DNA of 64,000 nt from an uncultured delta proteobacterium (GTDB taxonomy: Bacteria; Desulfobacterota; Binatia; UBA9968): NCBI GenBank assembly GCA_963760795.1, contig CAVXEP010000019.1:192001-256000 (forward strand). Reading direction: 5' to 3'. The notes beneath the pieces are model-generated. The model worked only from the letters and a program-made list of their open reading frames with translations, was not told where the DNA came from and did not search any database. Below are positions 3,642 to 51,749 of the stretch, piece after piece. Position 1 is the first letter of the stretch. Each line of letters opens with the position of its first letter. The position numbers and the translations under genes are program-made.

Positions 3642-3739
3642 GGAGCCTCCCGTTTCAGCGCACGGACGATTCTATTTCGTAGAAGCGCGGTGAATGCAAG
3701 GGAGGATATTGCCATACTTGCTTACGCCGCGAAGGGGGA

Positions 3740-10979: not shown

Positions 10980-10985
10980 AATAAT

Positions 10986-11649
10986 ATGGCAAGACAAGTT
11001 CCTATCGCGGTGTTGCTCTCCGGCGGCGGTACCAATCTTCAGGCGATTATCGACGCCATTGAGGCGAAAAAACTCGATGCTAAGATTGAATTGGTTTTGA
11101 GCAACAAAGCCGACGCTTTCGGTCTGGTGCGAGCGCAAAATCACGGCATCCCGACCGAAGTCTTGGACCACCAGACATATCCGAGCCGTGAAGCCTACGA
11201 TCAAGCGGTCGTCGATCGGTTGCGCGGGCGCGGCGTTGAGCTGGTGGCGCTCGCCGGCTTCATGCGTTTGCTCTCGCCGGTTTTCATCAAGGCCTACTCC
11301 AATCGGATCATGAACATTCACCCGGCCTTGCTGCCGTCATTCCCGGGTCTTCATGTGCAGCGCAAGGCCGTCGAGCATGGCGTGCGCTTTTCCGGCTGCA
11401 CGGTGCATTTCGTCAACGAAGAGTGCGACGAGGGGCCGATCATCATCCAAGCGGTCGTGCCGGTTTTTCCCGACGATACGGAAGAATCACTGGCGGCGCG
11501 GATTCTCAAGCAAGAACATCGAATTTTTCCCCGTGCCATCCAGCTCTTACGCCGAGGGGCGCCTGCATGTCAGTGGGCGCCGAGTGCTCGTGGATGGACT
11601 GAGTAAGGATGATGGCCAGGTGCTGATCCAACCGCCGCTGGAACGATGA
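10986..11649 (+). CDS. purN: Phosphoribosylglycinamide formyltransferase; apparent frameshift at ~11547
   Basis: SGGGTNLQA, LAGFMRLL, NIHPALLP, GCTVHFV...DEGPII, EHR. The C-terminus continues in another frame as YAEGRLHVSGRRV. Confidence 0.95.
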
Positions 11650-12621
11650 AAAAGGCCAAACCTATTATTGATTTTGTTAGTGAAGCTGCTCGTTAGCGGC
11701 GGTCTGTTAGCCTATTTTCTGTCGCGAGTTCATCCCGAGCGCTTTCTGCAAACCTTTGCGACGGCGAATTATTGGTGGATCGCGCTGGCGCTGGTCATCT
11801 ATCTGTGTACCCAAGCGATTAGTGCCGCGCGCTGGGCCACCCTCGGGCGGCCGTTGGGGATCGAGACGCGGTTCATAGATCTGCTCAAATATTACTTGAT
11901 CGGCATGTTCTTCAATCTGTTCGCGCCGGGCACGGTGGGCGGCGATGTCAGCCGGGTTCTTTACCTCGCGCGCGGTCAAGAATCTCACGCCAAGGGGCGC
12001 GCTGTGACGACCACGCACGCCGCCATGTCGGTGCTGATGGATCGCGCCATCGGTATGACCGTGTTGGTCTGGATAGGCGCCGCGGGGTTGCTGTTGTTTC
12101 CCGAATACGCGGTTCCGCCGACGGTTCGTTCGGTCACGCTTATGATCGCGGCGGGTTTTGTCGGCGCGGTTTTGCTGCTGCCGTTGCTTAGAGGTGTGTT
12201 GCCAGAGGACGGCCATCCGATGGTGGTCAAGATCCGCTTAGCCCTGCACAGTTATCGAACCCAGTGGCGCGCGTTGGCGGCCGCGGCTGGGCTCTCCCTG
12301 GTCGCTCATTTAATCCAAGCCTGGATGCATCTTGTGATGGGCCGCGCGCTCGGTTTAGAGGTGCCGCTTTCGTTTTGTATCATCGTCTATCCGTTGGTGG
12401 GGACCTTTGCGGCGATCCCGGTGAGTTTGAATGGATTGGGGCTGCGCGAAGGCGGTTACATCTATATGCTTGCCGTGATTGGCATCAGCAGTGAAAATGG
12501 CATCGCCTTCGGTCTGTTGTTGTTCTTGATCGTCGTCATCGACAGTTTAATTGGCGGCGTCCTGTTCTTGCTGCAAAAGTCGCCCAAAGCGGCCAACGTG
12601 ATTGCCGAGAAGACGATCTAG
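11646..12621 (+). CDS. Lysylphosphatidylglycerol-synthase TM-domain / flippase-like protein (UPF0104)
   Basis: RW, GMFFNLFAPGTVGGD, DR and PVSLNGLGLREG motifs. The ATG at 11646 (overlapping the purN stop) is one base out of frame with ORF 11668, so there is a probable insertion at ~11664. Confidence 0.85.
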
Positions 12622-27824: not shown

Positions 27825-29129
27825 TTATTGTTTGATATCTCGCGGCGCGCTTTTCCTTAGTAACGAGGCGAGAAGCTCAAGGCGCTCCTTCGAAAGATTC
27901 TTGAGCGCGGATGACGAACGATCGCTCTCGCGGGCGTACGCGTCTTGCTTTACCGCAGGCACAGCAGCCAGATTTTCCAGATATTCCTCAACCGGCGCGA
28001 TCGAAAGCTTCGAAACATAGTTCTCTGCGGCCTCCCGGGAGGCTGTAGATAGCTCGTCGTAATGCTGCCGATCAGAGAGAAGTCGCTTCAACGCGTCGAG
28101 CCAAGGCCGAATGTCTTGCTCGGGGACGAACGGGACTGGAAGCATCTGGTCATCTCTGTGCGTTTGGTATCGCGCGATGGGTTCAACCGGCAAGAGATAG
28201 TCCACACCTAGTTTTGCTTCGGGTAGGCCGCCCAGATTGCTAGCCAAGACCGGAATTCCTCTGAGCATCGACTCGACGACGATCTTGCCAAAGGCTTCCC
28301 CCCAGAGCGATGGCACCAGCATAATGCGGGTCCGGGCAAAAATCTGATCTATATCCTCGGTCGGCTGAAGCATCTCTACATTAGGAAATTGTTTTAGGGC
28401 AACCCGGTCGGCAGCGGTGGTAGCCCAAGTCGGCACAGCAGCAAACTTTTCCGCAGGTAATGCGCGCGCCAGCTCTAAAAAGATGGCAATTCCTTTGATC
28501 GCCGACGGGTTGACCATCGTAATGAAGGGGTTATCCAATGATCCGAAGTAGGGCCACGGGGGGTTCCCGAAAACCGGCAAGGAAATGGCGACCGAGTTCA
28601 GGCCGCCCCACTTAAAAATATAACTCTTCAGGTAATTGCTGACCGCTATGATTCCGGCCGTTCGTTGGAGCATTTCTGCTTTCAATGGATCTGGCGAAAA
28701 ACACTCTGGACCGAAAGGCAGAGTTGCCTGGCTGTGCGATAGAAAAACAACACGCCCCGGCACGCTCTCCAGGGCAGCCGCAAGGGCGAGATAACTAGGA
28801 TCCTCGGATATCAAAATCCAATCCGGCCTAAACTCTTCAGCTTGCTTCAGAAGCTCGCCGCAAAATTGACTGGGGTCGGCGAGTTGGTGAACCTGAACGC
28901 CATGGAGATCAAATTTCTCGGCCAAAGGCGAGAATCCCGCATGGGTCGGATCCAATGACTCGTTGCGCGATCCGCGGCGCGGCGCGAAATGTGTTGCGGT
29001 GTGCGACAACGCGAGGACTCTGCACAGGTGGCCTCTTCGGCTAAGATATTGCAGCAGCTCGCGGTTCGATTTTGCTGCCCCGGTCCATGTCGGTGAATAG
29101 GATAATTTCTGCGCCAGAAATATTTTCAC
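27825..29129 (-). CDS. Glycosyltransferase family 4 (GT-B) with a C-terminal docking-like tail
   Basis: TGAAKSNR, AVSNY, NPSAIKG, PSLWGEAFGKIVVESMLRGIPVLASNLGGLPE. Tail LKNLSKERLELLASLLRK. Confidence 0.9.
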   Translation of the reverse strand: MKIFLAQKLSYSPTWTGAAKSNRELLQYLSRRGHLCRVLALSHTATHFAPRRGSRNESLDPTHAGFSPLAEKFDLHGVQVHQLADPSQFCGELLKQAEEFRPDWILISEDPSYLALAAALESVPGRVVFLSHSQATLPFGPECFSPDPLKAEMLQRTAGIIAVSNYLKSYIFKWGGLNSVAISLPVFGNPPWPYFGSLDNPFITMVNPSAIKGIAIFLELARALPAEKFAAVPTWATTAADRVALKQFPNVEMLQPTEDIDQIFARTRIMLVPSLWGEAFGKIVVESMLRGIPVLASNLGGLPEAKLGVDYLLPVEPIARYQTHRDDQMLPVPFVPEQDIRPWLDALKRLLSDRQHYDELSTASREAAENYVSKLSIAPVEEYLENLAAVPAVKQDAYARESDRSSSALKNLSKERLELLASLLRKSAPRDIKQ

Positions 29130-29142
29130 GAATACGCCACAC

Positions 29143-31341
29143 TCAGTCCTGGCTGTGATCTTCCCTGGTTAGCAGCGATTTAACCTGATCATCGGATAGT
29201 CCTTCGATTTTCTTCAAAACGACATCAAGTTCATCGACGCTGGCGGCATCTGCTTGTGCCATTAGAATCTCTCGGCAGAGTCCGCCGATAGTAAGTTTAG
29301 TCGTAAAGAATAGTCTCACTGGGAGCTCAACGCCCAAATCTTTTCGGATGCGGGAGAGAACCTGCATACCGAGAAGTGAGTGACCTCCCAAATCGAAAAA
29401 GTTGTCATCGACGCCAATACGCTCCAATCCCAGCAGTTCCGACCACATGTGAGCCAGACGGTTCTCGAGCGGAGAACGCGGCGGCACGAACGGCACGACC
29501 TCCCGCGGCAGAGGACGGCGCGTTTGTAAAACCACGCGGTGGATTCTTTCGGCGTCGTTAAGTTCAATGGCAATAGAACTCAACAGCGACGCCTTTTCTC
29601 GGGCACCTCGCGTATCGGCGGCAATGACCGAAGACTCCTCGTCCTCGGCGGTCGCCGCGGTGATTGTCGCCGCCTCCTGTGGCCGGTATTCGATGGCCGC
29701 CGCATACACGGCGGGAAATTTGAAAAGATAACCTCCGTCAATTGTTTCCTTCAAATCCGCGCCGACACTCTCCAAAAACTCCAATGCGGGGCGATTTTTC
29801 TTGGTTTGGAGATAGCGCACTTCGACTCGATCGAAATCTCGCTGCATAGCAATTTCGCCTAGTCTCGACAGCAGGCGATGCTCTACGCCTTTGCCGAGAG
29901 CGCGGCAACTCAGCAGGAAGGTGTCCACGAGAATGCAAGCAACGGCTCTAAAAATAATTGCGCCAACGAGACCATAGTCGCCAAACCGATCTCTCAGGTT
30001 TACGGTGAGACACTCTGCGTCTTCTTTTTGACAGAGACTCTGAATTTCGCTCTCGGAACGTCGCTGGGTCGTACAGTTAAACTGGTTGGTTCTCTGGGTT
30101 AATTCCGCCACGCGGGGAATTTGACGCGTCACCAACGGCGCAATCTCGATTGTCAGATCGAGACCCGCTAGGAAATCGCTAAAACTAAGCGATGCCTTAT
30201 GAAAACTCGCCCGCTCGGAACTCTGTTTATACGCTAGATTGCGTTGTTGTCCTTCGGCGGTGACTTTGAGATGATCAAAGATCCACAGATGCGATAAAAA
30301 CTGCCCCGCCTGCTCGGGGTCCCGCGGAACTTGGAAGGTCAACACTTCAGGGCAGTGCGATTGCACTTCCGCGCACTCGACGGGATCGTCATCGAGAAAG
30401 ATGAAACTGTCGGCGCCGAGGTTCAACTCCTGTGCTAAAGCTCTGATGTTTTCCGATTTTTGCCGCCAATTGATTCGCCGGGCGACAAAATGATCGAGTT
30501 TCAAAGGCATATCGGAGCGATTTGTAAATACCTCGACGACATCAGCCTCATTGTTTTTGCTGCACAAACAAAGGAGCATTCCGGCATGATATTGTTCGAG
30601 CAGGAACTCTTGGATTTTCTTCCATGGCGGAGTTATCGCTATGCCAGCCGCGCCATCTTCGCCGCATACCCCGCCCCAGAGCGTCTGATCGCAATCCAGC
30701 ACGATTACCTTATAGGGGTCGCTCGTAAGGGTGTAAATTTTACGCGCGAGCATTGTCGCCAAGGCGCTGAAGAATAATGGCGTGAACGGGATATGCGCTA
30801 ACCTGTCACTGTCAGGATCATAATATTCCGCTACCGGATAGCAGGCGAATAGTTCAGCCGGCGTAATGACGTGGACTCCGGGTATTGCTTGCAGCTCGGT
30901 CTGCAGCGACGCGACTATATCTTCGACAAATCGTTTTCTCTCCGGGTCCATCACAACCGCCGGTGACGCCGGACATAAACAGACGAGCTGCGGCGTCGCC
31001 GAACGCTCGGCGGCGGTTGTAACGGCGCGCGCAAAGTCGCGCGCGTCACGTTCGAGCGCCGGAAACGACAGTTCGGCAGCTTGACGCCCTGCGGCACTCT
31101 TTTGCCAGTCTTCAAAGCCTACCAGAATAATATTGACACCCGTGCGGTTGGTGGCGAGCAAGCTAGACGGATCGACGAGTTGTTGAAATACCTGGTTGTA
31201 CGGCGCAAAAGTGATCCGCGCCGGTATCTGGAGTTCCTCCAGCCAGAAGGTCAGCGGTCGCTCGAGCGGCTCTGCTGTAAAGGTAGCTGTGATCGCGATC
31301 GTTTGCTCTGCGTTCCGAGTATCCAACTCATCATTCAACAT
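29143..31341 (-). CDS. FkbH-like (HAD-IIIC) glyceryl transferase fused to a phosphopantetheine carrier domain
   Basis: N-terminal ATFTAEP...FAPYNQVFQQL; HAD motif VLDCDQTLWGG; SKN; FLDDDP; RTNQFN; DRFGDYG; LLSCRALG. Carrier motif DDNFFDLGGHSLL. Start reassigned to ATG at 31341. Confidence 0.92.
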   Translation of the reverse strand: MLNDELDTRNAEQTIAITATFTAEPLERPLTFWLEELQIPARITFAPYNQVFQQLVDPSSLLATNRTGVNIILVGFEDWQKSAAGRQAAELSFPALERDARDFARAVTTAAERSATPQLVCLCPASPAVVMDPERKRFVEDIVASLQTELQAIPGVHVITPAELFACYPVAEYYDPDSDRLAHIPFTPLFFSALATMLARKIYTLTSDPYKVIVLDCDQTLWGGVCGEDGAAGIAITPPWKKIQEFLLEQYHAGMLLCLCSKNNEADVVEVFTNRSDMPLKLDHFVARRINWRQKSENIRALAQELNLGADSFIFLDDDPVECAEVQSHCPEVLTFQVPRDPEQAGQFLSHLWIFDHLKVTAEGQQRNLAYKQSSERASFHKASLSFSDFLAGLDLTIEIAPLVTRQIPRVAELTQRTNQFNCTTQRRSESEIQSLCQKEDAECLTVNLRDRFGDYGLVGAIIFRAVACILVDTFLLSCRALGKGVEHRLLSRLGEIAMQRDFDRVEVRYLQTKKNRPALEFLESVGADLKETIDGGYLFKFPAVYAAAIEYRPQEAATITAATAEDEESSVIAADTRGAREKASLLSSIAIELNDAERIHRVVLQTRRPLPREVVPFVPPRSPLENRLAHMWSELLGLERIGVDDNFFDLGGHSLLGMQVLSRIRKDLGVELPVRLFFTTKLTIGGLCREILMAQADAASVDELDVVLKKIEGLSDDQVKSLLTREDHSQD

Positions 31342-31361
31342 TGGCTCTTTGCTCCATCGAT

Positions 31362-32861
31362 CTAGGCGATGTGACCTGACCATAAATATGCAGCGGCCTT
31401 ACTGCCTTCGAGCTGGTGCACCGTCACCAGGCGTCCGACAACGGCTTCGGCGAGGGCGACGCGTGGATACCGGCCCTGTGGCCCGGAGCCGGAAGCACGG
31501 ACGTTTTTAGCGCCGGCGAGATTGACCCAAAAGGGATCATCTTCGGTCCTCGGCTTATCCGGGCCGACCATACGGCGCAGCGCGGCAGCGCTGCGCCAGC
31601 TTGCGGCTCCAACGGCAACCCAGCATTGGTAGCGGTCGGTATTAGTCGTTAAAGTCAAAAACGCGTGAGGTCGCACGGCTTCGACTGCCTGAGAATCGAG
31701 TTGATCGACCATTACTAACAACGGTTCGCCCGGCCGGTCATTGGTCAGAGGCCGGATCATAACATTCAAGTTCCGATTATCTGCAGCTTGCAAATGCGCT
31801 GGCAATCTCTCGAATAGTTGGTCGGGATCTAAAGCGGCTTCGGAAGCAAGCAACTCGCCGGAATCAGTCGTCAGCAACAAGTCAAATCGATCCTTGTCGA
31901 CGGATAAAAACAGCGCAATGATGAGCTGCGCCTGCTCCAAGCAGGAGCGGGAATCGGTCGGTGCAGTTGCGCTGATGTTGAGACCGGTCATCAGGCGACG
32001 ATGCCCTCGGGCCCAGCGTGAAGTTGTGTGATCCGCTTCGGGTTCAGTCTTGTCTGTGAAGAAGCGCACGGTCGTGACGTTCCACTTTTGATTAAAATGC
32101 TGCACTGTCCTCAGGTTCCAAGCTTCACTCCAGCGCAACATAAAATAGGCTAGATCCGACTCTTCACAAGCAGGCGGCGGAATGTAGCTGGTGACCGCCG
32201 TCGGCTCGATGTATACCGCTCCTCCGGCCTTTTGCACTTCCAAACACAGGTCAATGTGCTCTTGGTGGCTCAATAACTTTTCATCCAGCGGGCCGAGTTT
32301 CGCGAATACGTCCGTGCGCACCAACATGCAATGGAATTCTGCGTAGTCCCAAACGCTTCTTTGAAGCGGCACTTCTAGGTTAGCCATGGGAGTATCGAAA
32401 CGATATTGCTCGTCGTAAAGCACTCGGTGCCCTTGTTGCTCCGTGAATTTTAAAATTCCGCCAGCCATGTGGATCTTCTGGCGCTCGATCTCGCCAAAAA
32501 GATAAAGCGGGCCGACCACCCATGCTCCGGTTTCTTCGGCGCATTGCACTAAAGCCTCGAGCCAACCGCGTGTGACTAGCGCATCATTGTCCAAGAAGAC
32601 GAGGTATTCGGTGCTGACCTCTCTCAAGCCGAGATTTCGCGCTTGGTTAGGCGATAAAAACCGGTCCGAGTGAATAAGCGTGAAGCCCTTTGATTCCGCC
32701 TGGGCCGCGATCCGATGGTACATAGGTTTCGGCGTGCCGGCGCTGACATAAATCAGTTTGAAGGGAAGTGTCGTTTCCTGGTAGACGGTTTCGAGGGTGC
32801 GCTCACTATGGCTGAAACGCTCCCGCGGTACGATCACGATGGTGACTTGTGGCTCTGACAT
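31362..32861 (-). CDS. Glycosyltransferase family 2 fused to a RepB-type primase-like C-terminal domain
   Basis: Residues 1-260 are GT-A (VTIVIVPRER, ARNLGL, VFLDND, EHIDLC). Residues ~309-486 contain NVMIRP, LVMVDQL, FLTLTTNTDRYQCWV, NLAGAKN and YPRVAL. Confidence 0.82.
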   Translation of the reverse strand: MSEPQVTIVIVPRERFSHSERTLETVYQETTLPFKLIYVSAGTPKPMYHRIAAQAESKGFTLIHSDRFLSPNQARNLGLREVSTEYLVFLDNDALVTRGWLEALVQCAEETGAWVVGPLYLFGEIERQKIHMAGGILKFTEQQGHRVLYDEQYRFDTPMANLEVPLQRSVWDYAEFHCMLVRTDVFAKLGPLDEKLLSHQEHIDLCLEVQKAGGAVYIEPTAVTSYIPPPACEESDLAYFMLRWSEAWNLRTVQHFNQKWNVTTVRFFTDKTEPEADHTTSRWARGHRRLMTGLNISATAPTDSRSCLEQAQLIIALFLSVDKDRFDLLLTTDSGELLASEAALDPDQLFERLPAHLQAADNRNLNVMIRPLTNDRPGEPLLVMVDQLDSQAVEAVRPHAFLTLTTNTDRYQCWVAVGAASWRSAAALRRMVGPDKPRTEDDPFWVNLAGAKNVRASGSGPQGRYPRVALAEAVVGRLVTVHQLEGSKAAAYLWSGHIA

Positions 32862-33264
32862 AATAAAAGACTCAGTTATCGGCCGATCCCGTTACAGCTC
32901 ATTCCGAGCGTCTTCCATCCTTTTACAGAATCTGACCGGCGGAATTTCGGTCCTGACTTGTTTGTCCTGTCGGTTGCGGTTTCTGCTTTTTTACAACACC
33001 AGCATTATCATACATTATCCACGGTTCAGCCAACAGCCGATACGTTATCGGCAGTCGATGGAGCTTCGGCGGTGGCGGGCTCAGACTTTATATTCTTGAC
33101 AGACTAAACCAAATCGCCGGCCTGCCGGTCGGAAAAGCATGACGCTGACGAAATCATCGTCGAAACCTCTCGATCCAAACAGCTCGCGACGTCTTTAAAG
33201 CTCATAGATGAAATCCAGGGTGTTGTTCGCTCATCGGTGGCCGCTGGCACAACCCGAAAATCGA

Positions 33265-34287
33265 TTAAGCTAATTGATTCTCGGTTTTTCCCAAGCCAAA
33301 AGTCTCCGCCAGCAGTTCGTAGGAACGGTGGCGCGGAGCGGGATCGTAAGTCCATGTGACCACGACCAGTTCGTCGAGGTCGAGACTTTTCGCGAGTTCT
33401 TTCAGTCGAGTGGTGACCTGTTCTGAAGATCCGACAATCGCCTTGCGATGTAACTTTTCCGCGATCGCCAATTCGGCGGGCGAATACGGGCGATTTGCTT
33501 CCTCCGGCGACATCAGCGGCTGGCGGATGCCAAGTTTGCGGTCGATCATGGCGCGTTCGCGGGATTTGAACTGGAACAGTGCCTCCTCCTCGGTATCGGC
33601 GGCCAGCGCCCAGACGCAAATCGTGCAGATCGGCTTGGGATTGTTTTCGCTGGAGCGATAATTCTTGCGGTAAAGATCCAGCGCCTGCTCGACGCCAAAG
33701 CCGTCGCTGAAGAAGTAGGCGAAGGCGTAGGGTAAACCAAAATAGGCGGCAAGTTGCGCGCCGTAGTCTGAGCTGCCGAGAATCCACATCTCCGGCGTGG
33801 TCGGTCCCGTCGGTTGGGCGACGATTCTCTGAAACGGATGACCTTCGGGCAGGGGTTTCCCGGACACCCAGTGTTGCAGCTCCTGGACTTGCCGGGGAAA
33901 TTGATCATGGACATTCTGCGGGTGCGGATTGAGAGCGTGGGATGTCAATTGATCCGATCCGGGTGCGCGGCCGACACCCAGGTCGATACGGCCCGGCGCA
34001 ATGGCGTCCAGGACGCGGAACTGCTCTGCAACTTTCAGCGCCGCATAGTGCGGCAGCATCACGCCGGCGCTGCCGATACGGATACGCGGCGTGGTGGCGG
34101 CGATCGCCGCCATGAGTATCTCGGGGGCGGTGCCGACGATATTACCGGAGTTGTGATGCTCCGAGACCCAGTAGCGATGGTAACCCAGCGCGTCGCAATG
34201 TCTCGCGAGATCCAGGGTCTCACGGATCGCATTGCCCTGCGCTCGGCCCTTGGCCGCGGTCGATTGATCGAGTACTGACAGCTTCAT
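33265..34287 (-). CDS. LLM-class flavin-dependent oxidoreductase (luciferase-like)
   Basis: MKLSVLDQS, YWVSEHHN, RIGSAGVMLPHY, GRIDLGVGRAPG, WILGSS. Start ATG at 34287. Confidence 0.93.
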   Translation of the reverse strand: MKLSVLDQSTAAKGRAQGNAIRETLDLARHCDALGYHRYWVSEHHNSGNIVGTAPEILMAAIAATTPRIRIGSAGVMLPHYAALKVAEQFRVLDAIAPGRIDLGVGRAPGSDQLTSHALNPHPQNVHDQFPRQVQELQHWVSGKPLPEGHPFQRIVAQPTGPTTPEMWILGSSDYGAQLAAYFGLPYAFAYFFSDGFGVEQALDLYRKNYRSSENNPKPICTICVWALAADTEEEALFQFKSRERAMIDRKLGIRQPLMSPEEANRPYSPAELAIAEKLHRKAIVGSSEQVTTRLKELAKSLDLDELVVVTWTYDPAPRHRSYELLAETFGLGKTENQLA

Positions 34288-34388
34288 GGATGACCTGCTT
34301 GTCGGGCACAGTTTATTGTGAATTTGTTGGGAAGAGCATTCATCACGAATGATACTGTGCGGCAAGCCCGCAACCAAACACCGGAATA

Positions 34389-34488
34389 TCTCGCGCCAAG
34401 CTCGCAAAGACCGCCAAGTTATGAGATCAAATCTCCTTGGGGCCTGGGGTTGGGAGGCCTTTGCGTGCTTGGTGCACTTGGCGTGAGA
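34389..34488. repeat. Intergenic inverted repeat built from ~9-bp periodic CGC(A/C)AAG units
   Basis: TCTCGCGCCAAGCTCGCAAAGACCGCCAAG ... CTTTGCGTGCTTGGTGCACTTGGCGTGAGA. Confidence 0.7.
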
Positions 34489-34498
34489 AATTCCTCTG

Positions 34499-35413
34499 TT
34501 AGCCGAGCCGATCGCCGATGTTTAATCCCGCCTGTTTGGCAAATTCCGCGCCGCTGACTTTGGCGCCTGTGCCGCGAGCTTTCTTTATCGTCAGCGCGCC
34601 GCCATTCAGCGCGACGGTAATTCCTTCTCCACCGATGGCTGTCACTTGTCCAGCGGCCGCTGAATTCGGCCCGGCTTGCAGCCTAGCATCGAAGATGCGC
34701 ACCATCTTGCCTTGCCAATTCGTGTGCGCGCCGGGTTGGGGGTCGCAGCCGCGGATTAGGTTGTAGACTTCCTGCGCCGGTTTGGACCAGTCGATCTTGG
34801 CATGAGCGTCGTCGCAGATGGGGTCGTAATTGGCCTTGGATTCGTCTTGAACGATGCGCGGCGGGTTGCCGGCTTTGATGAGATCCACCGCTTCGCCGAT
34901 CGCTTCGATGCCCAGGGGAAATATTTTGTTGAAGTACAACGATCCGGTGGTGTCGTCCGGCTCGACCTTGACTTCTTTTTGCAACAGGATCGGCCCGGTA
35001 TCGATGCCTTTGTCGACCCAAAATAGCGAAAGTCCGGTGACCGATTCGCCTTTGATCAAGGCCCAGTTGATGGCGCTGGCGCCGCGATACTTGGGCAAAA
35101 GCGACGGATGAAAGCAGATGCTGCCGAGTTTTGGCACGCTGAAAACTTGCTGCGGGACGATCTGGGTGACGAAAGCGAGGATCGCTAGATCGGCGTTCAA
35201 CGCGACGAATTCGTCGCACACTTCCGGCGCTTTGAACGATTTAGGCTGTCGCACCTCGATGTGGAGATCGATGGCTTTCTGTTTTACCGGGTCGAATTTG
35301 CCGTTGGGCGGATCGGGCGGGCAATAGACCGCGACCACTTTCTCGCCTTTGCCAAGGAGTTTTTCCAGAGTCTTTTCGGCAAACGCCGCTTGTCCGATCA
35401 ATATTATTCGCAT
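34499..35413 (-). CDS. Fmt-like formyltransferase / 10-formyl-THF hydrolase-like protein
   Basis: MRIILIGQAAF, CFHPSLLPKYRGASAINW, GIDTGPIL, IDWSKPA.EVYNLIRGCDP.PGA. Confidence 0.85.
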   Translation of the reverse strand: MRIILIGQAAFAEKTLEKLLGKGEKVVAVYCPPDPPNGKFDPVKQKAIDLHIEVRQPKSFKAPEVCDEFVALNADLAILAFVTQIVPQQVFSVPKLGSICFHPSLLPKYRGASAINWALIKGESVTGLSLFWVDKGIDTGPILLQKEVKVEPDDTTGSLYFNKIFPLGIEAIGEAVDLIKAGNPPRIVQDESKANYDPICDDAHAKIDWSKPAQEVYNLIRGCDPQPGAHTNWQGKMVRIFDARLQAGPNSAAAGQVTAIGGEGITVALNGGALTIKKARGTGAKVSGAEFAKQAGLNIGDRLG

Positions 35414-35478
35414 TTGGTGAAACTCCGATACAGTAGAGCTAGCGCGTTACGAAGACGAGCCACGATCGCGATTTCTCG

Positions 35479-44097: not shown

Positions 44098-44322
44098 GCC
44101 GTCCTCCAAAACTAGCAAGTTTCTAGCATGCGAGGTGTAGCCATGCAATCTGCGGGTGGCTGGAAGGTAGTAATACTTCTGTAGATTTCGCTACTTAGGT
44201 GCGATCTTCAGCGTGCGGTTAAAAGACCCGGCAGTTAACCACATGCTCGTCAGTTTGCGCGGTAAGCCATTGATCGGCATCCGTTCGATTCAAAAGCATA
44301 GCTGACAACTATGCGAATTTTT

Positions 44323-44745
44323 TTATAAGTCGGTCATCACCTGGTGATAGTGGCCGAGAACGAATATGAACCCGGCCAAGACGAAGTGAAAAATGATTGG
44401 AATGACGTCGCCGAACCAGCGCATCTCGGGATGGAGAATCATGGTCAGAGCATAGCGCAGGATCATCAGTCCGGCATAGGCGCCGGCAAATTTTATCAGG
44501 AATTCCGCCCAGTGGGGGCGCACGACGGCGAAGGTGCCGGTGCCGCGCCAGACTTCACCGGTGATTTTCACCATCAGCATCAACATGAGAAGTTGGATGA
44601 TCAACAGTGAGGAGTAGGGAATCACGCCGGAAAACCATTGCTTCATAGCCGGTAGCCAGGAAATGCCGACAAAGGCGACCAGCGCTTGTCCCAAGACCCG
44701 GCACGCGAACAAAAACGTTATTAGGGCTAGGAGCGGTCCGTGCAT
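44323..44745 (-). CDS. Hypothetical membrane protein (~4 TM)
   Basis: Four hydrophobic segments, with WLPAMKQWFSG.IPY and IPIIFHFVLA. ATG lies 7 nt after the GH3 stop. Confidence 0.7.
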   Translation of the reverse strand: MHGPLLALITFLFACRVLGQALVAFVGISWLPAMKQWFSGVIPYSSLLIIQLLMLMLMVKITGEVWRGTGTFAVVRPHWAEFLIKFAGAYAGLMILRYALTMILHPEMRWFGDVIPIIFHFVLAGFIFVLGHYHQVMTDL

Positions 44746-44752
44746 TCTCTTG

Positions 44753-46437
44753 CTACTTGCACCCGTGCGTTGAGGCCCCGCTGAGTTCAATCACGCGTGT
44801 AATTTCGTCGGTTGCTTGCGGTGTCGTGCTGAGCAGTTGGGCTTTGAACTGAGTGTCGCGAGCGCCGCGGTGGAGTGCGGCGCTCGCCTGACGTTCGTAC
44901 CAGCCGGGCGGCATCAGGCAAAGCACCGGCGGCTTGAGACGCTGGGATGCGCGTTTCTGAGCGTATTCGATATTGAGCTGGGCAAGGTTTTGATCCAGCG
45001 CGGCGAGCAATTGCCTGAGCGCGTCGTCGCTTGGATTCGCGCCGTCGAATTCGATTGGGAATGAGTAGCGCGATTCTTCCGCGTCGGCGATTCCGCGGTA
45101 GTGTCGCGGCGTGATACCGGCGAGCGCTTGCGCCAGTTCCATCGCCTGGATGACCTGATTGACGTGGAGTTTCTCGCCGGTGATGTTGGTGAAATCGCGG
45201 CCTTTGCGGACAAATTCGAGCAGCGGGGTTTGCCGAAAGAATCCCGCGACGCGCACCACATCGTTGATATCGTAGCGGTACAAACCGCCTGGCGTGGTGA
45301 GGATGAGATAATAACTCTCGCCGGTTTTCAATTCCGCGCAGGTCAGCGTTGCCGGTTGTGGACTGTCGATTTCCGCTTCGGGAATGAACTCGTAAAAATT
45401 GCCGTTCAAATCAGGGATGCCGGCGAACCCGGAGTCGGATATCGGCAAGGTCATCTGCGCCTCGCTCGCCATATAGCCTAAATCGCGCACCGGCATGGAC
45501 TCGCCGAACCAGCGGTGCAGTTCATTCAAGCGCACACCGACCGTGCCGCCTTTCCAGCAACCGATCAATTGCAGTTGTGGCCAGTAATCCATGGGACGCA
45601 GGGCGCCGTATTGGTTCGCCAGCCGTTCGAGCTCGAGCCGCGCGGGCGGGATTTTTCTCGAGTTGCGCTGCGAGCTTTTGCCGCACCGCGCCGGGAATAT
45701 GCCAGCGCTCGCTGATGGTGCCGTCGCGAATGTCGCGGATGATTTCAGATTTATTATTGTCGGCGATTTCGACCAGGCGCAGAATCGTGCTCGGATTGGG
45801 CGTGCCGAGAAACGAGATTGGCTGCGCCAACGCCAACACGCATGATCAGGTAGTACTTGGCGGCGAAGTCTTTCACTTCGGCGACCTCGTAGGGTAGGGC
45901 GAAGGCGTTCTGAATCCAGCGTGGACTGCTCTGATAAATCAAGCCTGAGGCGGCGCCGTAGGGAATATTGCCGGCGGTTTTCCCTTCTTGGGCGGAACTG
46001 ACGACGCCGAGCATTTTGCCGTCGAACAAGCCGGGATGATCGAGGTTGGCGCGGTAGTACCAAAGGCGCGTAAGTCGACGGTGGTTGGCGCGGCTGTTCT
46101 CGGTCACCGGGATCAGCTTGGGTGCGCCGGTGCTGCCGCTGGTCAGCGTGAACATCTCGACTGGCGCTTCGGTCAAGACCTGAGCTTCGCCATTCTCGGC
46201 ACGCTCGACATAGGGGCGAAGCCGTTCATAGTCGCCAATGGCGACCCGCTCGCGGTAGTCCGCCAAGCTGCGAATCGCCGCGAAGCCATGATCCTTGCCA
46301 AAGGCGGTTCCGCGGTTGCGCTGAATGATGTCGAGCAATAGCCGGTTTTGCACCGTTGCCGGAACGGCGGACAATTTTTCCCAGCTGCTCCAAAGACGGC
46401 CGGTGACGAAGGCCGCTGCTTTGACGATCACGCTCAT
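44753..46437 (-). CDS. GH3-family acyl acid-amido synthetase; two apparent frameshifts at ~45837 and ~45638
   Basis: TAFGKDHGF, FTLTSGSTG..KLIP, GYMASE, FYEFIP, GLYRYDINDVV, TGEK. Repaired length 560 aa. Confidence 0.88.
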
Positions 46438-46441
46438 GGGT

Positions 46442-48308
46442 TTAACGCCGCAATTCGATTTTCTCGACGGTGAGTCGTTCGAGGGCTTCTTCCTTGACGG
46501 TGACGCTCAAGCCGCGGCTTTTCAGCAGTGGCGCGCGGCCGCCGAGGCCGAAGGCGACGTTGTCGAACGTGATGTCTTCCGACAACAGCCAGGTGCCGAA
46601 GGATCCTTCAGCACCGGCTAACTCGGGCACATGGGCCGCGAAAGTTCGGCCGGCGGCCGATAGGATGCCGGTCTCGCCGACCTGAGCGCCCACTTGGATT
46701 TTGATGCCGGCTTCCTGCGCAAGTTTAGCAATCGCCAGACTGCCGGTGATGCCGCCGTTTTTTGACAGACGAATGTTAAATAGATCGCAGGCTTTTTCTG
46801 CGATCAAGCGGCGCGCCTGCTCGACGGTGACCAGCGATTCGTCGGCCATGACCGGGATGGCGCACTGGGCGCGCACTTGTTTCATGCCATCGATATCGTC
46901 AGCCGCCACTGGCTGTTCGATTACGGCGAGTTTAAACAGCGCCAGCTGCTTCAAATGTTCAACTGCTTGCGCCGCGTTCCAAGCGCCGTTGGCGTCGGCG
47001 CGCAGTTCAACTTTGCTGCCCACCGCTTGACGCACCGCGTTCAGGCGCGCGGCGTCATCTGGCGTGCCGACTTTGATCTTGATCTGTTTGAGGCCCAATT
47101 GCGCCATGCGCTTGGCCAACGCCGCGGCGTCCTTCGGCGCATCGGCGGAGATCACGCCGCTGTAGACGACCTCGAAACGCGCCGGCGGAAGATAGTCCGC
47201 CAAAGCGCTATGATCCGTGCGCAGGTTCCAGTCGAGCAGCGCCAACTCGACGGCGCAAAACGCCGCATTCCAGGCAGTGACGCCATTGTTTGATTGCGGA
47301 AGTCCGCGTCCAGTCCGGCTGCAGCGACTGCAACTGCTCGATGGTCTGCCAGCCGGGGAAAAACGTTTGTTGAAAGATCCTTGGCGCAAGGAAATCGCGG
47401 ATCCGCGCGATCATCGATTCAGTGGTCTCGCCGGTGACGTAGACGCGCGGTAACCCTTCGCCAAAGCCGCTACGGCTGTCGCTGCCGGTGATTTTTACAA
47501 TTACGGCGTCGCTTTCGTCGCGGCTATGCAGCGCGTGGCTAAAGGCTTGGTGAAACGGAATGCGCAGGCGATAGATGGTGAGCGCGTCGACGCGCTGGGG
47601 CCCGACTGCTTTGCTGCGGGTTTTTAGCTTCGAGCTCGGCGGAAAATAATGGCGGCAGAAAAGCTGGTCGCCGAGAGTGAAGCCAGCGATCTGGTCGAAT
47701 AGCGAGTCGGAGATCTGATGAAACTCGCTGTAGTCTTGGATCACCGTGATCGCTTCTTCGGCGTGGCGGATATCGACTTCGGAATGAAGCTCGAACCAGC
47801 GTAGGGCGGCGCCCGCAATGGCATAGTTATCACACAGCGCGTTGGCCAGTTCGCTGGAGCAGCGCGACAGCATGAACTCGAAGCTCATGGTTTCGAGCAG
47901 CACCGACAGGCAGAGCTCGCGCAACGTCGCCACCGGCACGCGGGTGGCGCAAACCAGCGCGACGCGCCGGCGCGCGTCGGCGATCAGCTGATCGATTTCA
48001 TCGTTAGCGAAGCCGATGGCGCGAGCCATTTCCAAGAGCAGCTGGGAGTGGGGCGGCTCATGTTCCGACCGGCCCATTTCTTCGAGCAGGTTCTCTTTCA
48101 ACATCTCCGCGGCCGACGACGGCAGCGCGGCGAAACAAAGCGCGACGATATGCGATGACAGATAATGGGTGCGAAAGATATTGCGCAAAAACTCGTAGGC
48201 GGTCAGCATGCCCGCGGCGCCGCCGACGAGGTCGCGATATTCGCGGGCTTGCGTGAAATCGTTGGTGGCTTGCTCGAAGTATTTAACGATCTGTTGCGCG
48301 GCGACCAT
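46442..48308 (-). CDS. Fusion of a heme-oxygenase-like diiron (TenA/PqqC/CADD-like) domain and an enolase-superfamily (MLE-subgroup) domain; apparent frameshift at ~47300
   Basis: N-terminal ENLLEEMG..EHEPPH, LETMSFE and WFELHSEVDIRHAEE. Then capping domain GFGEGLPR.YVTGET, followed by KIKVG, RADAN, IEQP, MADES, NIRLSKNGG and GET. Repaired length 621 aa. GGAGG RBS. Confidence 0.85.
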
Positions 48309-48356
48309 GGTCACCTCCGATGCTGGTTGGGCAGCGGTTGAAGCTCGATGGCCATT

Positions 48357-51300
48357 CTAAGCGATTGCTTTTTCCAAGGCCATCGCTTTGACTCTTTTCA
48401 GATCGGCTTTGCCTGAGCCGAGGATGGGAATCTCGTCGATGGCGTGGAGATCTTCGCGCTTGGGAACCCACAGCTTGGGCAATGCGGATTTGTTGAGCTG
48501 GTCCCATAGCTCCTCGCGGCTGACGCCGTTCTTGGCGTAGAAAACCACCAGCCGCTCACCGCGCTGTTCGTCCGGGATCGCAGTCACCACCGATGCCGGG
48601 CTGCCGAGTAAGTCGTTGATCATCTCTTCGATCTTCATGTGCGGCACCATCTCGCCGCCGATCTTGCTGAAGCGCGACAAGCGGTCGGTGATGGCGATGA
48701 AGCCGTCCTCATCGATGGTCGCGATATCGCCAGTGACATACCAGCCTTGGCGCATCGCTTGATCGGTTAGGTTCTGCTGATTCAAGTAGCCGAGCATGAC
48801 GTTAGGTCCTTTGACGAGCAGCAGCCCTTCTTCGCCTGGGCCGAGGGTCTCGCCGCCATCGGGATCGATCACCTTGGTCGCGACGCCTGGGAGCGGATGG
48901 CCGACCGTGCCGGGCTTGTGGCCGGTCTGTTTTTCCTTGTCGTGGACAACATCGGGTGTGTTGACCGCGACCACGGGGGAGAGCTCCGTGCAGCCGTAGC
49001 CTTCGAGGAGGGTGATGCCGAATTTATCCTGATAACCCTTGGCGATCTGTGCGCGCAGCTTTTCCGCGCCGGAGATGACGTAGCGCAGCGAGGCGAACTG
49101 TTCCTTGGTGCAGCGGCGCCAGTAGCTGACGTAGAAGGTCGGCGTGCTGATCAATAATGACGCGCGGTATTTCTCGACGGTCTCACCAATAGTCTTGGCG
49201 TCGGTGGGATTGGGGTGATAGACCGCGCCGAAGCCGGTCAGCAGCGGCAACCAGATGGTCGCGGTGAAGCCGAAGGAGTGAAATAGCGGCAAGATGCCCA
49301 TGATACGATCCTGCGGCGTGAATTGAATCACCTGGCCGATCGCCTCGACGTTGGAAATAATGTTGTGGTGCGACAGCATCACGCCTTTGGGCGTGCCGGT
49401 GCTGCCGCTGGAAAATATGATCGTGGCGAGATCGTTGGAGCGCTGTTGTTTGCGCGCGCGGCGGTTGAGCCAACGCGCCGGCGTAACATAGGCTTTGACC
49501 GCGATGGCGAGTTTTCGCGCGCCGGTAAACGTCTGGCGGATCTCTTCAACAAAAACCATGCCGTCCATTTTCTCAAGATTGGCTTTGTCCAAAAACGTTC
49601 GCGAGGTGACGATGGTGGTGATCTTACATTGGGCCAGCGCCGCGGCCGTGGATTCTTTGCCGCCGGTGAAGTTCAAATTTACCGGCACTTTGCCCGCTAG
49701 CAGGGTGGCGATATTGACCAGCGCGCCGCCGACGCTGGCTGGCAGGATCACGCCAATCATCGACTGGCCGGCGCAATGGCTCCTCAGCCAGCGGCAAAAA
49801 AGCAGGCTGCCGATGAGCGCCTTGCCATAGGTGAGCTCTGTGCCGGTGGTGTCGGCCATGCAGAACCTCGACCAGTGGCGCTTGGCCATCTCGACGAACT
49901 TGGCGTGGAGCAGATCGCCGGGAAGCCGACGGTACTCCACCGCCTCGCTTTCCAGCTCTAAGATCGCGTTGCGCACCTGCACCACGGAGGAGGTTGGCGG
50001 CAGCGGCGCGCCAAACGACACCGTGACCGAGTAGGGGAATTGCATCGGCCACTTCCAAAAGAACTTACCGTCTTTGAAACTAAAGATGCTGCCCCAGAGC
50101 TGGTCCAAGTGCACCGGCACGATCGGAATATCCGAGCCCTCGACGATTTTCTCGAAGCCGCGCTTGAACGGCAGCAGCCGGCCGGTACGGCTGATCGCGC
50201 CCTCAGCGAAGATACACACCACATGGCCGTTTTCGAGTTCGTTTCTCGCCCGCTTGAGCGACTGGACGATGTCGCGCCGATTGTTCGCCGACACCGGGAT
50301 CGCATGCATGAGGCGGAAAAACCAGTTGAGCGATTTGAGATCGTAATACTCCCGATGCAGCATGAAGCGGACGAAGCGCGGCTGCGGCGCGCCGACCAAG
50401 AGCGCATCGACGAAGGAGACATGGTTGCAGACCAAGAGCGCCGGCCCCTGGAGCGGGATATTTTGTCCACCGACCACCCGGATGCGATAAAGCGTATTGG
50501 TCAACAGCCAGACGACGAAGCGGACGAAATAATCGGGCAGCAGGTACAAGATCGCCAGCGTGCCGGCGAGGGTAAACAGTCCGATCAGCAAGATGATGGT
50601 GTCGGGGGATAGTTGGAGCGGCGTTTTCAAGAACCAATGTAGCGCCGCTGCCAGGGCGATGCCGATGGTGTTCAGGAAATTATTGGTCGCGATCAATTGG
50701 CCCTTTTCCTCTTTGCCGCTACGTTGTTGCAATAGCGCGTTGAGCGGCACGGCGAACAGGCCGGCGGCAAAGCCGAGCAGCATCAAGGCCAGTGCAGTGT
50801 GCGGATAGGACGGTGCCGCCCAGGCGACCAGGGCAAGGCAAATGCCCATGCCCACCGAGCCGAGGGGTACCAAGCCCAATTCGATATGGTCGCCGGAGAG
50901 TTTGCCGGCGGCGAGACTGCCGATGCCGATGCCGATCGCCAAGAAAGTCCCCAATAGGCCGATGTGAAACTCATCGAGCTGCAACAGCTCCTTGCCGAAA
51001 AAAAGAATATTGATATTGACCAGCGCGCCGAGAAACCAAAAGTAAGAGATGCCGAGGACGGTAAACCACAGCGCCCGTTCGCGTCGCAGCCGGCGCAGGC
51101 CATCGGTAATTTCGCCGAAGGGGTTCAAGTTGAGCAGCTTGGTCGACCCCGAAGCCGGCACCCTGGCGATGCGCAGGCTGGTAAGATAACCGGCGATGGC
51201 GATGGCGATCATGATCAGGCCGATGCGCGGCAACTGGTTTTTCCAAACCGAGAAGATCGCGCTGCCCACCGACGTCCCCAGAATGATCGCCATGAAGGTG

Positions 51301-51749
51301 CTCATCTCCAACAAGCCGTTGCCGCGCGACAGTTCTTTATCCGGCAGCATTTCCGGCAAGATGCCGTACTTGGCGGGGCTGAAGAAGGCCGAGTGCAGGC
51401 CCATCAAGAAAACCGCCGCGAGCATGGGCCGGATGTCCGCGAAGTAGAATGACACCAGGACGAAAATCATGATGGCGATTTCGGCCGCTTTCACCGCCAC
51501 CAGGATTGTCCGCTTGCTATAGACGTCGGCGAGATGGCCGGCATAACCGGAAAACAGCGCCGACGGCAGGATAAATAGGATGGCGATCAGTTCGACGTAG
51601 AAATCGCCGCCGTGCCCGGCCAAGCTCAGGGCGACGAACGAGACCACGATTTTTAAGAAATTGTCATTGAATGCACCTAAGAACTGGGTGCAGAAGAAGG
51701 CAAGGAATCCCGGCTGTTTGAGCGTGACGGTGTAGTTGCCGTTATTCAT
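48357..51749 (-). CDS. aas: Aas-like trifunctional protein: LplT-type MFS + PlsC-type acyltransferase + acyl-ACP synthetase
   Basis: TQFLGAFNDN and FFSPAKYGILPE; NHVSFVD (HX4D) and IFAEG; FSSGSTGTPKG, EGYGCTE and WYVTGD. Confidence 0.92.
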   Translation of the reverse strand: MNNGNYTVTLKQPGFLAFFCTQFLGAFNDNFLKIVVSFVALSLAGHGGDFYVELIAILFILPSALFSGYAGHLADVYSKRTILVAVKAAEIAIMIFVLVSFYFADIRPMLAAVFLMGLHSAFFSPAKYGILPEMLPDKELSRGNGLLEMSTFMAIILGTSVGSAIFSVWKNQLPRIGLIMIAIAIAGYLTSLRIARVPASGSTKLLNLNPFGEITDGLRRLRRERALWFTVLGISYFWFLGALVNINILFFGKELLQLDEFHIGLLGTFLAIGIGIGSLAAGKLSGDHIELGLVPLGSVGMGICLALVAWAAPSYPHTALALMLLGFAAGLFAVPLNALLQQRSGKEEKGQLIATNNFLNTIGIALAAALHWFLKTPLQLSPDTIILLIGLFTLAGTLAILYLLPDYFVRFVVWLLTNTLYRIRVVGGQNIPLQGPALLVCNHVSFVDALLVGAPQPRFVRFMLHREYYDLKSLNWFFRLMHAIPVSANNRRDIVQSLKRARNELENGHVVCIFAEGAISRTGRLLPFKRGFEKIVEGSDIPIVPVHLDQLWGSIFSFKDGKFFWKWPMQFPYSVTVSFGAPLPPTSSVVQVRNAILELESEAVEYRRLPGDLLHAKFVEMAKRHWSRFCMADTTGTELTYGKALIGSLLFCRWLRSHCAGQSMIGVILPASVGGALVNIATLLAGKVPVNLNFTGGKESTAAALAQCKITTIVTSRTFLDKANLEKMDGMVFVEEIRQTFTGARKLAIAVKAYVTPARWLNRRARKQQRSNDLATIIFSSGSTGTPKGVMLSHHNIISNVEAIGQVIQFTPQDRIMGILPLFHSFGFTATIWLPLLTGFGAVYHPNPTDAKTIGETVEKYRASLLISTPTFYVSYWRRCTKEQFASLRYVISGAEKLRAQIAKGYQDKFGITLLEGYGCTELSPVVAVNTPDVVHDKEKQTGHKPGTVGHPLPGVATKVIDPDGGETLGPGEEGLLLVKGPNVMLGYLNQQNLTDQAMRQGWYVTGDIATIDEDGFIAITDRLSRFSKIGGEMVPHMKIEEMINDLLGSPASVVTAIPDEQRGERLVVFYAKNGVSREELWDQLNKSALPKLWVPKREDLHAIDEIPILGSGKADLKRVKAMALEKAIA

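Follow-up and report, generated by a model that had tools for sequence, protein, structure and literature searches.

Fusion of a heme-oxygenase-like oxidase domain to an enolase-superfamily domain in Binatia-like bacteria and Dehalococcoidia, and its split, GH3 ligase-associated counterpart in other lineages

A minus-strand gene in the contig CAVXEP010000019.1 of an uncultured delta proteobacterium (Binatia lineage UBA9968, assembly GCA_963760795.1) encodes a heme-oxygenase-like dimetal oxidase (HDO) domain followed, in the same reading frame, by an enolase-superfamily domain. The whole stretch of DNA analysed, 64,000 nucleotides from positions 192,001 to 256,000 of this contig, is hereafter called the window. 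The two-domain HDO/enolase architecture is genuine and widely conserved; most lineages encode the two halves as separate, adjacent genes, the fusion being a lineage-specific variant of this pair. Together with the product of a GH3-family ligase gene located directly downstream, the protein may act as a bifunctional tailoring enzyme on a single carboxylate, which would probably be an N-acyl amino acid, a proposal that might equally well prove right or wrong.

The minus-strand open reading frame (ORF) 47208-48314 (368 aa) holds the stretches ENLLEEMGRSEHEPPH, LETMSFE and HSEVDIRH and is overlapped, in another frame, by the minus-strand ORF 46442-47389 (315 aa), in which Pfam recognizes MR_MLE_C with 174 bits (cut-off 29.4). 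The gene start at 48308 (MVAAQQ) matches the starts of relatives, the intact ones of which are 618-624 aa long. With one of them, the 621-aa protein P0002, as the reference, the in-frame part A of the window gene (48308-47301, 336 aa) is identical at 313 of 335 positions to residues 1-335 and part B (47290-46445) at 256 of 281 positions to residues 341-621. As the two parts align to P0002 on either side of the break, the change of frame lies inside the enolase domain. One frame extends from 48308 to about 47300 through the HDO domain, the linker and the first approximately 100 residues of the enolase capping domain, whereby the part after the HDO domain aligns gap-free to P0002 residues 231-335 and MR_MLE_N is found at the matching residues of intact relatives. 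AlphaFold2 (AF2) models full-length P0002, all domains included, with a predicted local distance difference test score (pLDDT) of 92.3 and a predicted template modelling score (pTM) of 0.90. The initial annotation of this DNA, made from the sequence alone, had postulated an in-frame fusion whose apparent frameshift at around 47300 is located downstream of the junction and has no role in creating the fusion; the position of the break inside the enolase domain agrees with this, as do the relatives.

These are numerous. Among 326 relatives returned by a word-indexed protein search, 110 of the 120 listed are proteins of 595-640 aa which carry both PF14518 and PF13378, under source names that are generic or guessed, such as 'enolase C-terminal domain-like protein', 'muconate cycloisomerase', 'L-Ala-D/L-Glu epimerase' and 'PQQ biosynthesis protein C'. 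Among the best 150 matches of an exhaustive search of the 50%-identity representatives, full-length two-domain matches are restricted to P0121 (63%) and P0122 (46%). The others consist of three Hydrolase_4/MR_MLE fusions and of proteins of enolase type or HDO type that stand alone. A genome scan of contigs returned 80 loci. The fused frame is found in 33 of them, 21 Binatia-like (records labelled Binatia, delta proteobacterium, Syntrophobacter and similar) and 12 Dehalococcoidia, the only two groups with the fusion, and the fused ORF is uninterrupted and of standard length in 26 of the 80. The histidine motif H[SAG]EVD[IV]RHAE of the HDO domain is present in every one of the 80 loci. In 45 loci, a stop codon 57-77 residues past the motif is followed by a separate enolase gene; these split loci belong to cyanobacteria (26), Rokubacteria (5), Sericytochromatia/Tanganyikabacteria (3), Omnitrophota (2), Pyrinomonadaceae (2) and 'uncultured bacterium' (3), and include L064, L065, L067 and L068. 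Another two loci (L035, L070) are broken just past the motif. How closely the two genes can be arranged is exemplified by Calothrix sp. PCC 7103, where the two overlap in an ATGA, the HDO gene covering 10001-10708 and the enolase gene 10705-11850.

An unrooted tree of 41 concatenated or fused sequences, calculated with a quick method under LG+G4, places the 17 fused rows on one side of a single branch with an SH-aLRT of 100. It leaves out 10 near-identical fused rows, all broken loci, and those split loci in which the enolase ORF was missed by the filter, among them every locus from Rokubacteria and Sericytochromatia. A single event, be it fusion or fission, suffices to account for the pattern. 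No larger fusion of HDO, enolase and GH3 was present among proteins of 1088-3105 aa, which is weak evidence. A 980-aa open frame running from the fusion into GH3 in L001 (9800-12739) is probably an artefact and was not counted because this record has other one-base indels, among them one in the neighbouring Aas-type gene at window position 50265.

The N-terminal domain of the fusion is of HDO type. Pfam identifies PF14518 (Haem_oxygenas_2) at residues 41-195 of the window ORF with 58.5 bits (cut-off 28.9), and in P0121 and P0122 with 65-68 bits. The helical bundle demanded in the initial annotation is borne out: the AF2 model of the window domain (pLDDT 88.7) is an all-helical heme-oxygenase-like fold, for which Foldseek reports as best matches the CADD structures 8vag/1rcw (E about 1e-5, TM 0.68/0.74), followed by HrmI, PqqC, UndA, RohS, FlcD and the heme oxygenase HmuO, the top 10 PDB matches being CADD, HrmI and PqqC. 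On the sequence level, the only PDB matches are CADD/CT610 (1rcw, 8va9) with an E value of 0.018. Counted from the alignment, E77, H87, E144, H175, D179 and H182 fall on E81, H88, E142, H174, D178 and H181 of CADD, which we take to be its metal ligands. All six codons are present in the window (E77 48078-80, H87 48048-50, E144 47877-79, H175 47784-86, D179 47772-74 and H182 47763-65), so that the complete set of putative diiron ligands which had been read from the letters alone is borne out at the sequence level, and none of the six positions varies among 26 N-domains, drawn from at least seven groups (alignment A4), of which those outside the window's own clade are 30-36% identical to the window.

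A set of three histidines and three carboxylates is described as a hallmark of the HDO superfamily in the consulted passages of PMC7848743, which attribute to HDO N-oxygenases of the SznF/RohS type an extra coordinating glutamate in auxiliary helix 2. Residues 34-61 of alignment A4 contain no invariant acidic residue, in a sequence alignment rather than a structure-based comparison with SznF. From ligands and model, we predict the N-domain to be a heme-oxygenase-like oxidase that activates O2 at a dimetal site (Fe/Fe or Fe/Mn), an assignment that shares the even chances of the overall proposal. It shares the six ligand positions with CADD/CT610 of Chlamydia trachomatis (1rcw, 8va9, 8vag), a p-aminobenzoate synthase of the HDO family, but CADD stands alone and belongs to a folate context, whereas the N-domain has an enolase-type enzyme as its fused or adjacent partner and is accompanied by a GH3 ligase. 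The same helical fold is found in UndA, which decarboxylates fatty acids, the N-oxygenases HrmI and RohS, and FlcD (4wwj, 9n1a, 9pfx, 8w1q); sequence identity of the N-domain to these proteins and to SznF amounts to 12-16%. SznF, in which an HDO domain is fused to a cupin, provides a precedent for fusions of HDOs to other catalytic domains. Stand-alone relatives of the Calothrix HDO number 405 at E <= 1e-10 and bear generic names only, and the Atlas search with the N-domain retrieved only generic PF14518 clusters. In two loci, the HDO ORFs (L064 9206-10654, L079 9239-10642) carry approximately 230-250 extra N-terminal residues without a Pfam match, which may represent a real extension or a mere open upstream frame in GC-rich DNA.

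The C-terminal domain retains most, but not all, of the catalytic apparatus of the racemases and epimerases that it resembles. K410-x-K412, D438, E464 and D489 are invariant in the alignment of relatives, and the window codons for these residues as well as for R513 and K516 are present. K410 and K412 align to LKIKVG of the L-Ala-D/L-Glu epimerase 1jpm, so that the KxK motif with the catalytic lysine of strand 2 is kept, and D438, E464 and D489 align to the Mg ligand positions of strands 3, 4 and 5, including E219 and D244 of 1jpm. The best fold match of P0002 is the N-succinyl Arg/Lys racemase 2p88 (TMt 0.93), with 1jpm, dipeptide epimerases and N-acylamino-acid racemases as further matches, all of which act on N-acylated amino acids or dipeptides; the sequence matches agree, with 1jpm as the best in the PDB (E 8.7e-41). 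Overall, the racemase and epimerase structures match at E 1e-41 to 1e-36 and TMt 0.89-0.93 and share with the enolase domain KxK, the D/E/D metal ligands and K-x-G-G after strand 6, but differ in that arginine 513 stands in place of K268, the DxD of strand 8 is gone, and the domain is coupled to an oxidase.

The arginine is a consistent feature. The catalytic strand-6 lysine K268 of 1jpm aligns to R513 (region 46760-46771, minus strand) and the second-shell K271 to K516; the motif FN[ILV]R[LIV]SK[CN]GG was matched in 74 of the 80 loci, with arginine in each of the 74, and in stand-alone relatives (alignment A3, 36-55% identical) arginine is present wherever the motif matched, that is in 19 of 22. 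DxD of strand 8 binds the ammonium group of the dipeptide in dipeptide epimerases; the corresponding LDLDG stretch of the dipeptide epimerase 3rit aligns to VE--GS. According to the portions considered of 10.1101/2022.03.03.481873, catalytic lysines on strands 2 and 6 are what defines the MLE subgroup, and all characterised racemase/epimerase families possess a positive residue at '+3' (position 266 in AmyNSAR, K271 in BsDE). The present subfamily has kept the '+3' lysine (K516) and replaced the catalytic one by arginine. It is therefore not a standard member of the racemase and cycloisomerase families that it resembles, and a two-base racemase mechanism is doubtful. All NCBIfam models of these families stay below their cut-offs, namely the dipeptide epimerases (NF041118, 105.9 versus 500 bits; NF011708, 91.3 versus 343), NSAR/OSBS (TIGR01928, 102.4 versus 200.65), muconate cycloisomerase (TIGR02534, 141.1 versus 334.95) and DgcA (NF042940, 125.9 versus 400). 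As the second element of the overall proposal and equally balanced, we predict the C-domain to be a Mg-dependent enolase-superfamily domain of MLE type that would take the alpha-proton from a carboxylate. The same enolase subfamily was also observed behind an N-terminal Hydrolase_4 domain (lysophospholipase-like alpha/beta-hydrolase) in the uncharacterised proteins P0185, P0214 and P0224 (683-711 aa); their enolase domain is 37-39% identical to the C-terminal part of the fusion, but is joined to a serine hydrolase instead of an oxidase.

The best clue to the substrate of the HDO/enolase pair is its GH3 neighbour, found directly downstream on the same strand in 77 of the 80 loci, while in the three loci without it (L009-L011) the contig ends within approximately 330 nt of the match. 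In the window, Pfam places the N-terminal domain of GH3 in 45754-46437, positions 191-260 of the GH3 profile in 45522-45839 and GH3_M and GH3_C in 44753-46063; the GH3, GH3_M and GH3_C domains are also found in the Calothrix locus L051. The nucleotide-binding motifs TSGTTGxPK, NFYEFIP and GLYRYDxxD are invariant in alignment A6, and the adenylation motifs are intact in the window. The one characterised GH3 enzyme from bacteria, OlsH, uses ATP to convert free fatty acid and ornithine into N-acyl ornithine, and its gene shares an operon with genes of lipid tailoring, as stated in excerpts of PMC12493201. Its model NF052613 is the sole NCBIfam match of the cassette GH3, with 84.3 bits versus a cut-off of 620 and over the N-terminal part only, and the cassette GH3 is therefore not an OlsH orthologue. 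The ornithine-lipid pathway of planctomycetes combines the GH3 ligase OlsH with the alpha/beta-hydrolase O-acyltransferase OlsI (PMC12493201, in part), and similarly cyanobacterial cassettes come with an alpha/beta-hydrolase and Binatia-like ones with an acyltransferase. The terms enolase, racemase and heme oxygenase do not occur in PMC12493201, which reports no HDO or enolase genes from OlsH operons; ornithine lipids have not been found in cyanobacteria, as given in sections of PMC12971839.

A small membrane protein often completes the cassette. In the window, its start is, judged by relatives, MHGP at about 44745; the relatives have 142-169 aa, often overlap the GH3 stop and share conserved motifs (alignment A8). 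Matches by tblastn occur in 38 of the 80 loci; in about 37 of these, which are Binatia-like, cyanobacterial or from Rokubacteria, the gene immediately follows GH3 in the same orientation. The protein has no Pfam or NCBIfam family, its Atlas clusters are named 'hypothetical protein' only, and it has no likeness to an ICMT-type membrane methyltransferase encoded next to the cassette in L037.

How could these activities work together? In the proposed scheme, the GH3 ligase would join an acyl acid to an amino acid, yielding a possibly lipidic N-acyl amino acid; the amino-acid carboxylate of this product would be enolised by the enolase domain, and the HDO domain would oxidise the same molecule. 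The enolase step could consist of one-base enolate formation and subsequent beta-elimination of a group installed by the HDO domain, or a related lyase step, since the strand-6 arginine favours one-base chemistry over two-base racemisation. This one-base elimination is the weakest link of the proposal. Due to the chemistry of GH3 enzymes and the structural relatives of the enolase domain, an N-acyl amino acid would be the most economical shared substrate, and the membrane protein together with lipid-handling neighbours hints at a lipidic acyl group. The occurrence of the two domains as fused or as split but adjacent genes plausibly fits two coupled steps on one carboxylate, as had been put forward in the initial annotation; architecture, ligand and catalytic residue sets, folds and conserved gene order are observed, substrate class, order of steps and reaction types are those which we infer. 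Of this earlier interpretation the architecture holds, and the split-pair form, the GH3 neighbour, the strand-6 arginine and the breaks in the GH3 and a DTW-domain gene had been missed. A precedent for tailoring of aminolipids is provided by hydroxylases, which in the sections of PMC12971839 include the di-iron enzyme OlsE of another superfamily. Considerably more tentative is the wider notion that HDO/enolase, GH3 and the membrane protein might constitute an undescribed, widespread pathway to an oxidatively tailored N-acyl amino acid, in which the Arg-for-Lys enolase would catalyse a reaction new to its superfamily; we doubt this rather than believe it. If true, it would mean a new aminolipid head-group chemistry or signalling conjugate, for example by enolate-driven elimination of an oxidase-installed group to give a dehydro-amino-acid or enamide.

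Several observations weigh against the proposal of a tailoring enzyme for N-acyl amino acids. With arginine on strand 6, the likeness to N-acyl-amino-acid racemases may not be transferable to chemistry or substrate, and no characterised member of the subfamily of either half was found. The cassette GH3 is, judged by its model score, only a distant relative of OlsH. No acyltransferase is conserved across phyla, and the synteny with the Aas-type gene in Binatia-like genomes may simply be inherited gene order. In Dehalococcoidia, the membrane protein is adjacent in none of 14 loci, the match in L036 being on the opposite strand, and the cassettes are placed among housekeeping genes (ZnuA, PNPase, S15, Asd, DapB). 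Finally, with the fusion and GH3 genes broken at three places, the system may be dead in the organism from which the window derives.

Other functions have been considered. Stereo-inversion or salvage by transient N-acylation, in which an amino acid of D-form or unusual type would be acylated by GH3, inverted at C-alpha by the enolase domain and deacylated by a hydrolase (CocE/NonD in cyanobacteria), with the HDO domain oxidising substrate or product, would follow the acylate/racemise/deacylate logic of the N-succinylamino-acid racemase (NSAR) pathway. We consider it unlikely, yet the most probable of these alternatives. It agrees with the nearest structures and models (2p88, the N-acetyl-D-Glu racemase DgcA, dipeptide epimerases and NAAAR), with the lysine at the '+3' second-shell position (10.1101/2022.03.03.481873, in part) and with the CocE/NonD hydrolase after the cassette in 13 cyanobacterial loci, and NSAR genes are reported, in excerpts of PMC12006748, from operons of a D-amino-acid conversion pathway. 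However, all racemase family models remain far under their cut-offs, the hydrolase is found in cyanobacteria only, and no role is left for the O2-activating domain or the membrane protein. That the enolase domain acts as an L-Ala-D/L-Glu-type dipeptide epimerase in the recycling of peptidoglycan peptides or dipeptides is highly improbable, despite 1jpm being the best sequence match, the JGI source names including 'L-Ala-D/L-Glu epimerase' and a peptidase-family hydrolase adjoining the cassette in cyanobacteria: the epimerase equivalogs of NCBIfam score at a fraction of their cut-offs, the strand-6 lysine is arginine, the LDLDG stretch of 3rit is lost, and neither GH3 ligase nor oxidase would have a place.

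A slightly fainter chance still is given to a CADD-like, self-sacrificing p-aminobenzoate synthase related to folate metabolism, fused by chance to an enolase-type enzyme. CADD is the best match of the N-domain in both sequence and structure, and TIGR04305 ('CADD family putative folate metabolism protein') matches weakly; its 25.1 bits compare with a cut-off of 200, though, the identity to CADD is 16-18%, and no folate genes are conserved around the cassette. Of the side chains that CADD sacrifices, Tyr27 and Lys152 in the parts covered of PMC13108848 and PMC9522330, the latter has Leu154 at its position. Compared with these alternatives, coupled oxidation and enolisation of an N-acyl amino acid is the reading we prefer.

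A separate question is posed by the breaks in the window copy. Comparison with L001, L007, L002 and L003 (blastn gaps and local alignments) reveals in the window a single extra base at 47293-47299 in the fusion gene, where the reading passes from ...QPDWTRT to ...QSNNGVTAWNAAF, and two more single extra bases in the GH3 gene, near 45837 and 45636. Programmed frameshifting can be ruled out, as most relatives are uninterrupted and P0044, P0049, P0052 and P0104 shift at other sites; shifts at differing sites were also found in the loci L002, L007, L019, L021 and L035. The breaks are probably consensus indel errors rather than biology, with an assembly indel being probable because at least two other window genes are also frameshifted. 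The gene of a DTW-domain protein is split in two frames, with profile positions 1-98 in 1872-2408 and 108-193 in 2008-2541 (plus strand, Pfam), by a frameshift near 2200 that is 44 kb away from the cassette and has no connection with it; the argument that frameshifts cluster in the cassette and hence are real was dropped on account of this gene. In 7 of 11 Binatia-like records named 'contig_N' (L001, L002, L007, L019, L021, L035, L070), the fusion gene has breaks or run-on, idiosyncratic and at differing sites, versus none of 11 Binatia-like records with k141/NODE/scaffold-type names. In addition, the gene of an ornithine cyclodeaminase/mu-crystallin (OCD) protein at 2558-3671 (minus strand) seems to be without its N-terminal approximately 80 profile positions; the ORF 2964-3671, which overlaps it in another frame, would be a plausible N-terminus but has no Pfam match, and a frameshift near 3400 is possible.

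Alternatively, the cassette copy of the window, as distinct from the family, might be a recently inactivated pair of pseudogenes, which we consider possible but rather unlikely. One-base insertions without compensation, of which the fusion gene has one and GH3 two over a distance of about 1.7 kb, each versus four relatives and none in a run of more than two identical bases, next to an intact 3.4-kb Aas gene and an intact BioB gene, would be consistent with decay. On the other hand, the DTW gene 44 kb away is split and the OCD gene may be, related long contigs are broken elsewhere in the fusion gene and in Aas, and every catalytic codon is intact. The ratio of nonsynonymous to synonymous substitution rates (dN/dS), computed against L003, L004 and L012, is 0.12-0.20 for both fusion halves, 0.08-0.23 for the GH3 pieces and 0.06-0.14 for intact neighbours, and no piece in its correct frame has an in-frame stop. 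With low dN/dS, no stops and intact catalytic codons, any decay must therefore be very recent. For the window alone the outcome is modest, a broken copy of a conserved gene.

Beyond the window, the HDO and enolase superfamilies are among the best-studied 'mechanistically diverse' ones, and we found no report of them joined or paired. No description of the HDO/enolase architecture or of the GH3 cassette was found in the Creative-Commons part of PMC and bioRxiv (main texts); the HDO texts searched do not mention a fusion or pairing of HDO and enolase-superfamily proteins, and a 2026 HDO mini-review contains none of the terms fused, fusion, enolase or GH3. The literature searched thus agrees with the initial annotation, in which no characterised fusion of this type had been known. 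The sequences are already public under generic names, while, as far as could be seen, the architecture, the four-gene cassette and the Arg-for-Lys enolase subfamily are undescribed. The pattern of fusion versus split indicates that both activities form a unit, the GH3 neighbour, being nearly universal, gives a testable substrate hypothesis, and the Arg-for-Lys change marks an enolase subfamily without assigned chemistry; if the product were an N-acyl amino acid, this would extend the recent finding of bacterial GH3 enzymes that build aminolipids. The cassette is a good lead for enzyme discovery and, as it is present in the cultured cyanobacteria Calothrix PCC 7103, PCC 7716, Leptolyngbya PCC 6406, Nodosilinea and Nostoc, bench work is possible without the uncultured Binatia-like organisms.

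Table 1. Features of the cassette region in the window, with the basis of each assignment
Feature	Position	Strand	Basis or remark
HDO domain, fusion residues 1-230	47619..48308	-	PF14518, AF2 model, Foldseek, ligand codons
Linker (YFPP...) and start of enolase N-terminal capping domain	47300..47618	-	Same frame as HDO
One-base insertion (+1 frameshift) versus four related loci	47293..47299	-	blastn gap lists, local alignments
Rest of capping domain and TIM-barrel domain	46442..47292	-	MR_MLE_C; stop codon 46442-46444
GH3-family acyl-acid amido synthetase gene	44753..46437	-	Three frames; insertions near 45837 and 45636
Small membrane protein, 155 aa in the ORF list, no known family	44323..44790	-	At least three strongly hydrophobic segments
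Terminator-like hairpin past membrane-protein stop	44296..44314	-	8-pair stem and T-rich tail, pattern scan only
MFS (LplT-like)/acyltransferase/acyl-ACP synthetase gene, Aas type	48357..51749	-	Lineage-specific upstream neighbour, same strand

The genes in the window are arranged in the order Aas-type gene, 48-nt gap, fusion gene, 4-nt gap, GH3, membrane protein, hairpin and BioB (Table 1). Pfam finds MFS_1, Acyltransferase and AMP-binding in the Aas-type protein, which matches NF006386 of NCBIfam with 1396.8 bits (cut-off 1221). Such a gene is present in 19 of 25 Binatia-like loci, directly upstream in 18, and a similar three-domain Aas gene is located two genes downstream of GH3 in L032 of Omnitrophota. 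The hairpin is possibly the operon end; the scan returned 18 terminator-like sites versus 11.1 expected in shuffles, which is weak evidence. A CocE/NonD alpha/beta-hydrolase gene adjoins the cassette in a cluster of 15 loci, 13 cyanobacterial and two others. Besides the ICMT-type gene of L037, other adjoining genes encode an LCM carboxyl methyltransferase (L045) and a RidA-like protein (L032), and in L079 an 1814-aa protein with an LPG_synthase_TM domain is encoded directly upstream of the cassette. No Rfam family, and hence no riboswitch or RNA leader, reached its gathering score in the window, and in six loci Rfam identified two tRNAs and NsiR1 only, none inside the cassette.

NsiR1, a nitrogen stress-induced sRNA, is encoded in L051 at 8777-8830 (plus strand; 52 bits, gathering score 39), beside lgt and, relative to the cassette of Calothrix PCC 7103, approximately 1.2 kb upstream. 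Elsewhere in the window, a stand-alone LPG_synthase_TM membrane protein (lysyl-phosphatidylglycerol synthase/flippase-type) is encoded at 11650-12618 (plus strand). On the minus strand, 27828-35446 contains the genes of a GT4 glycosyltransferase, a protein of 751 aa whose sole domain is PP-binding, a GT2 glycosyltransferase, a luciferase-like monooxygenase and a formyltransferase with its C-terminal domain, which look like a cluster for glycolipid or polysaccharide modification.

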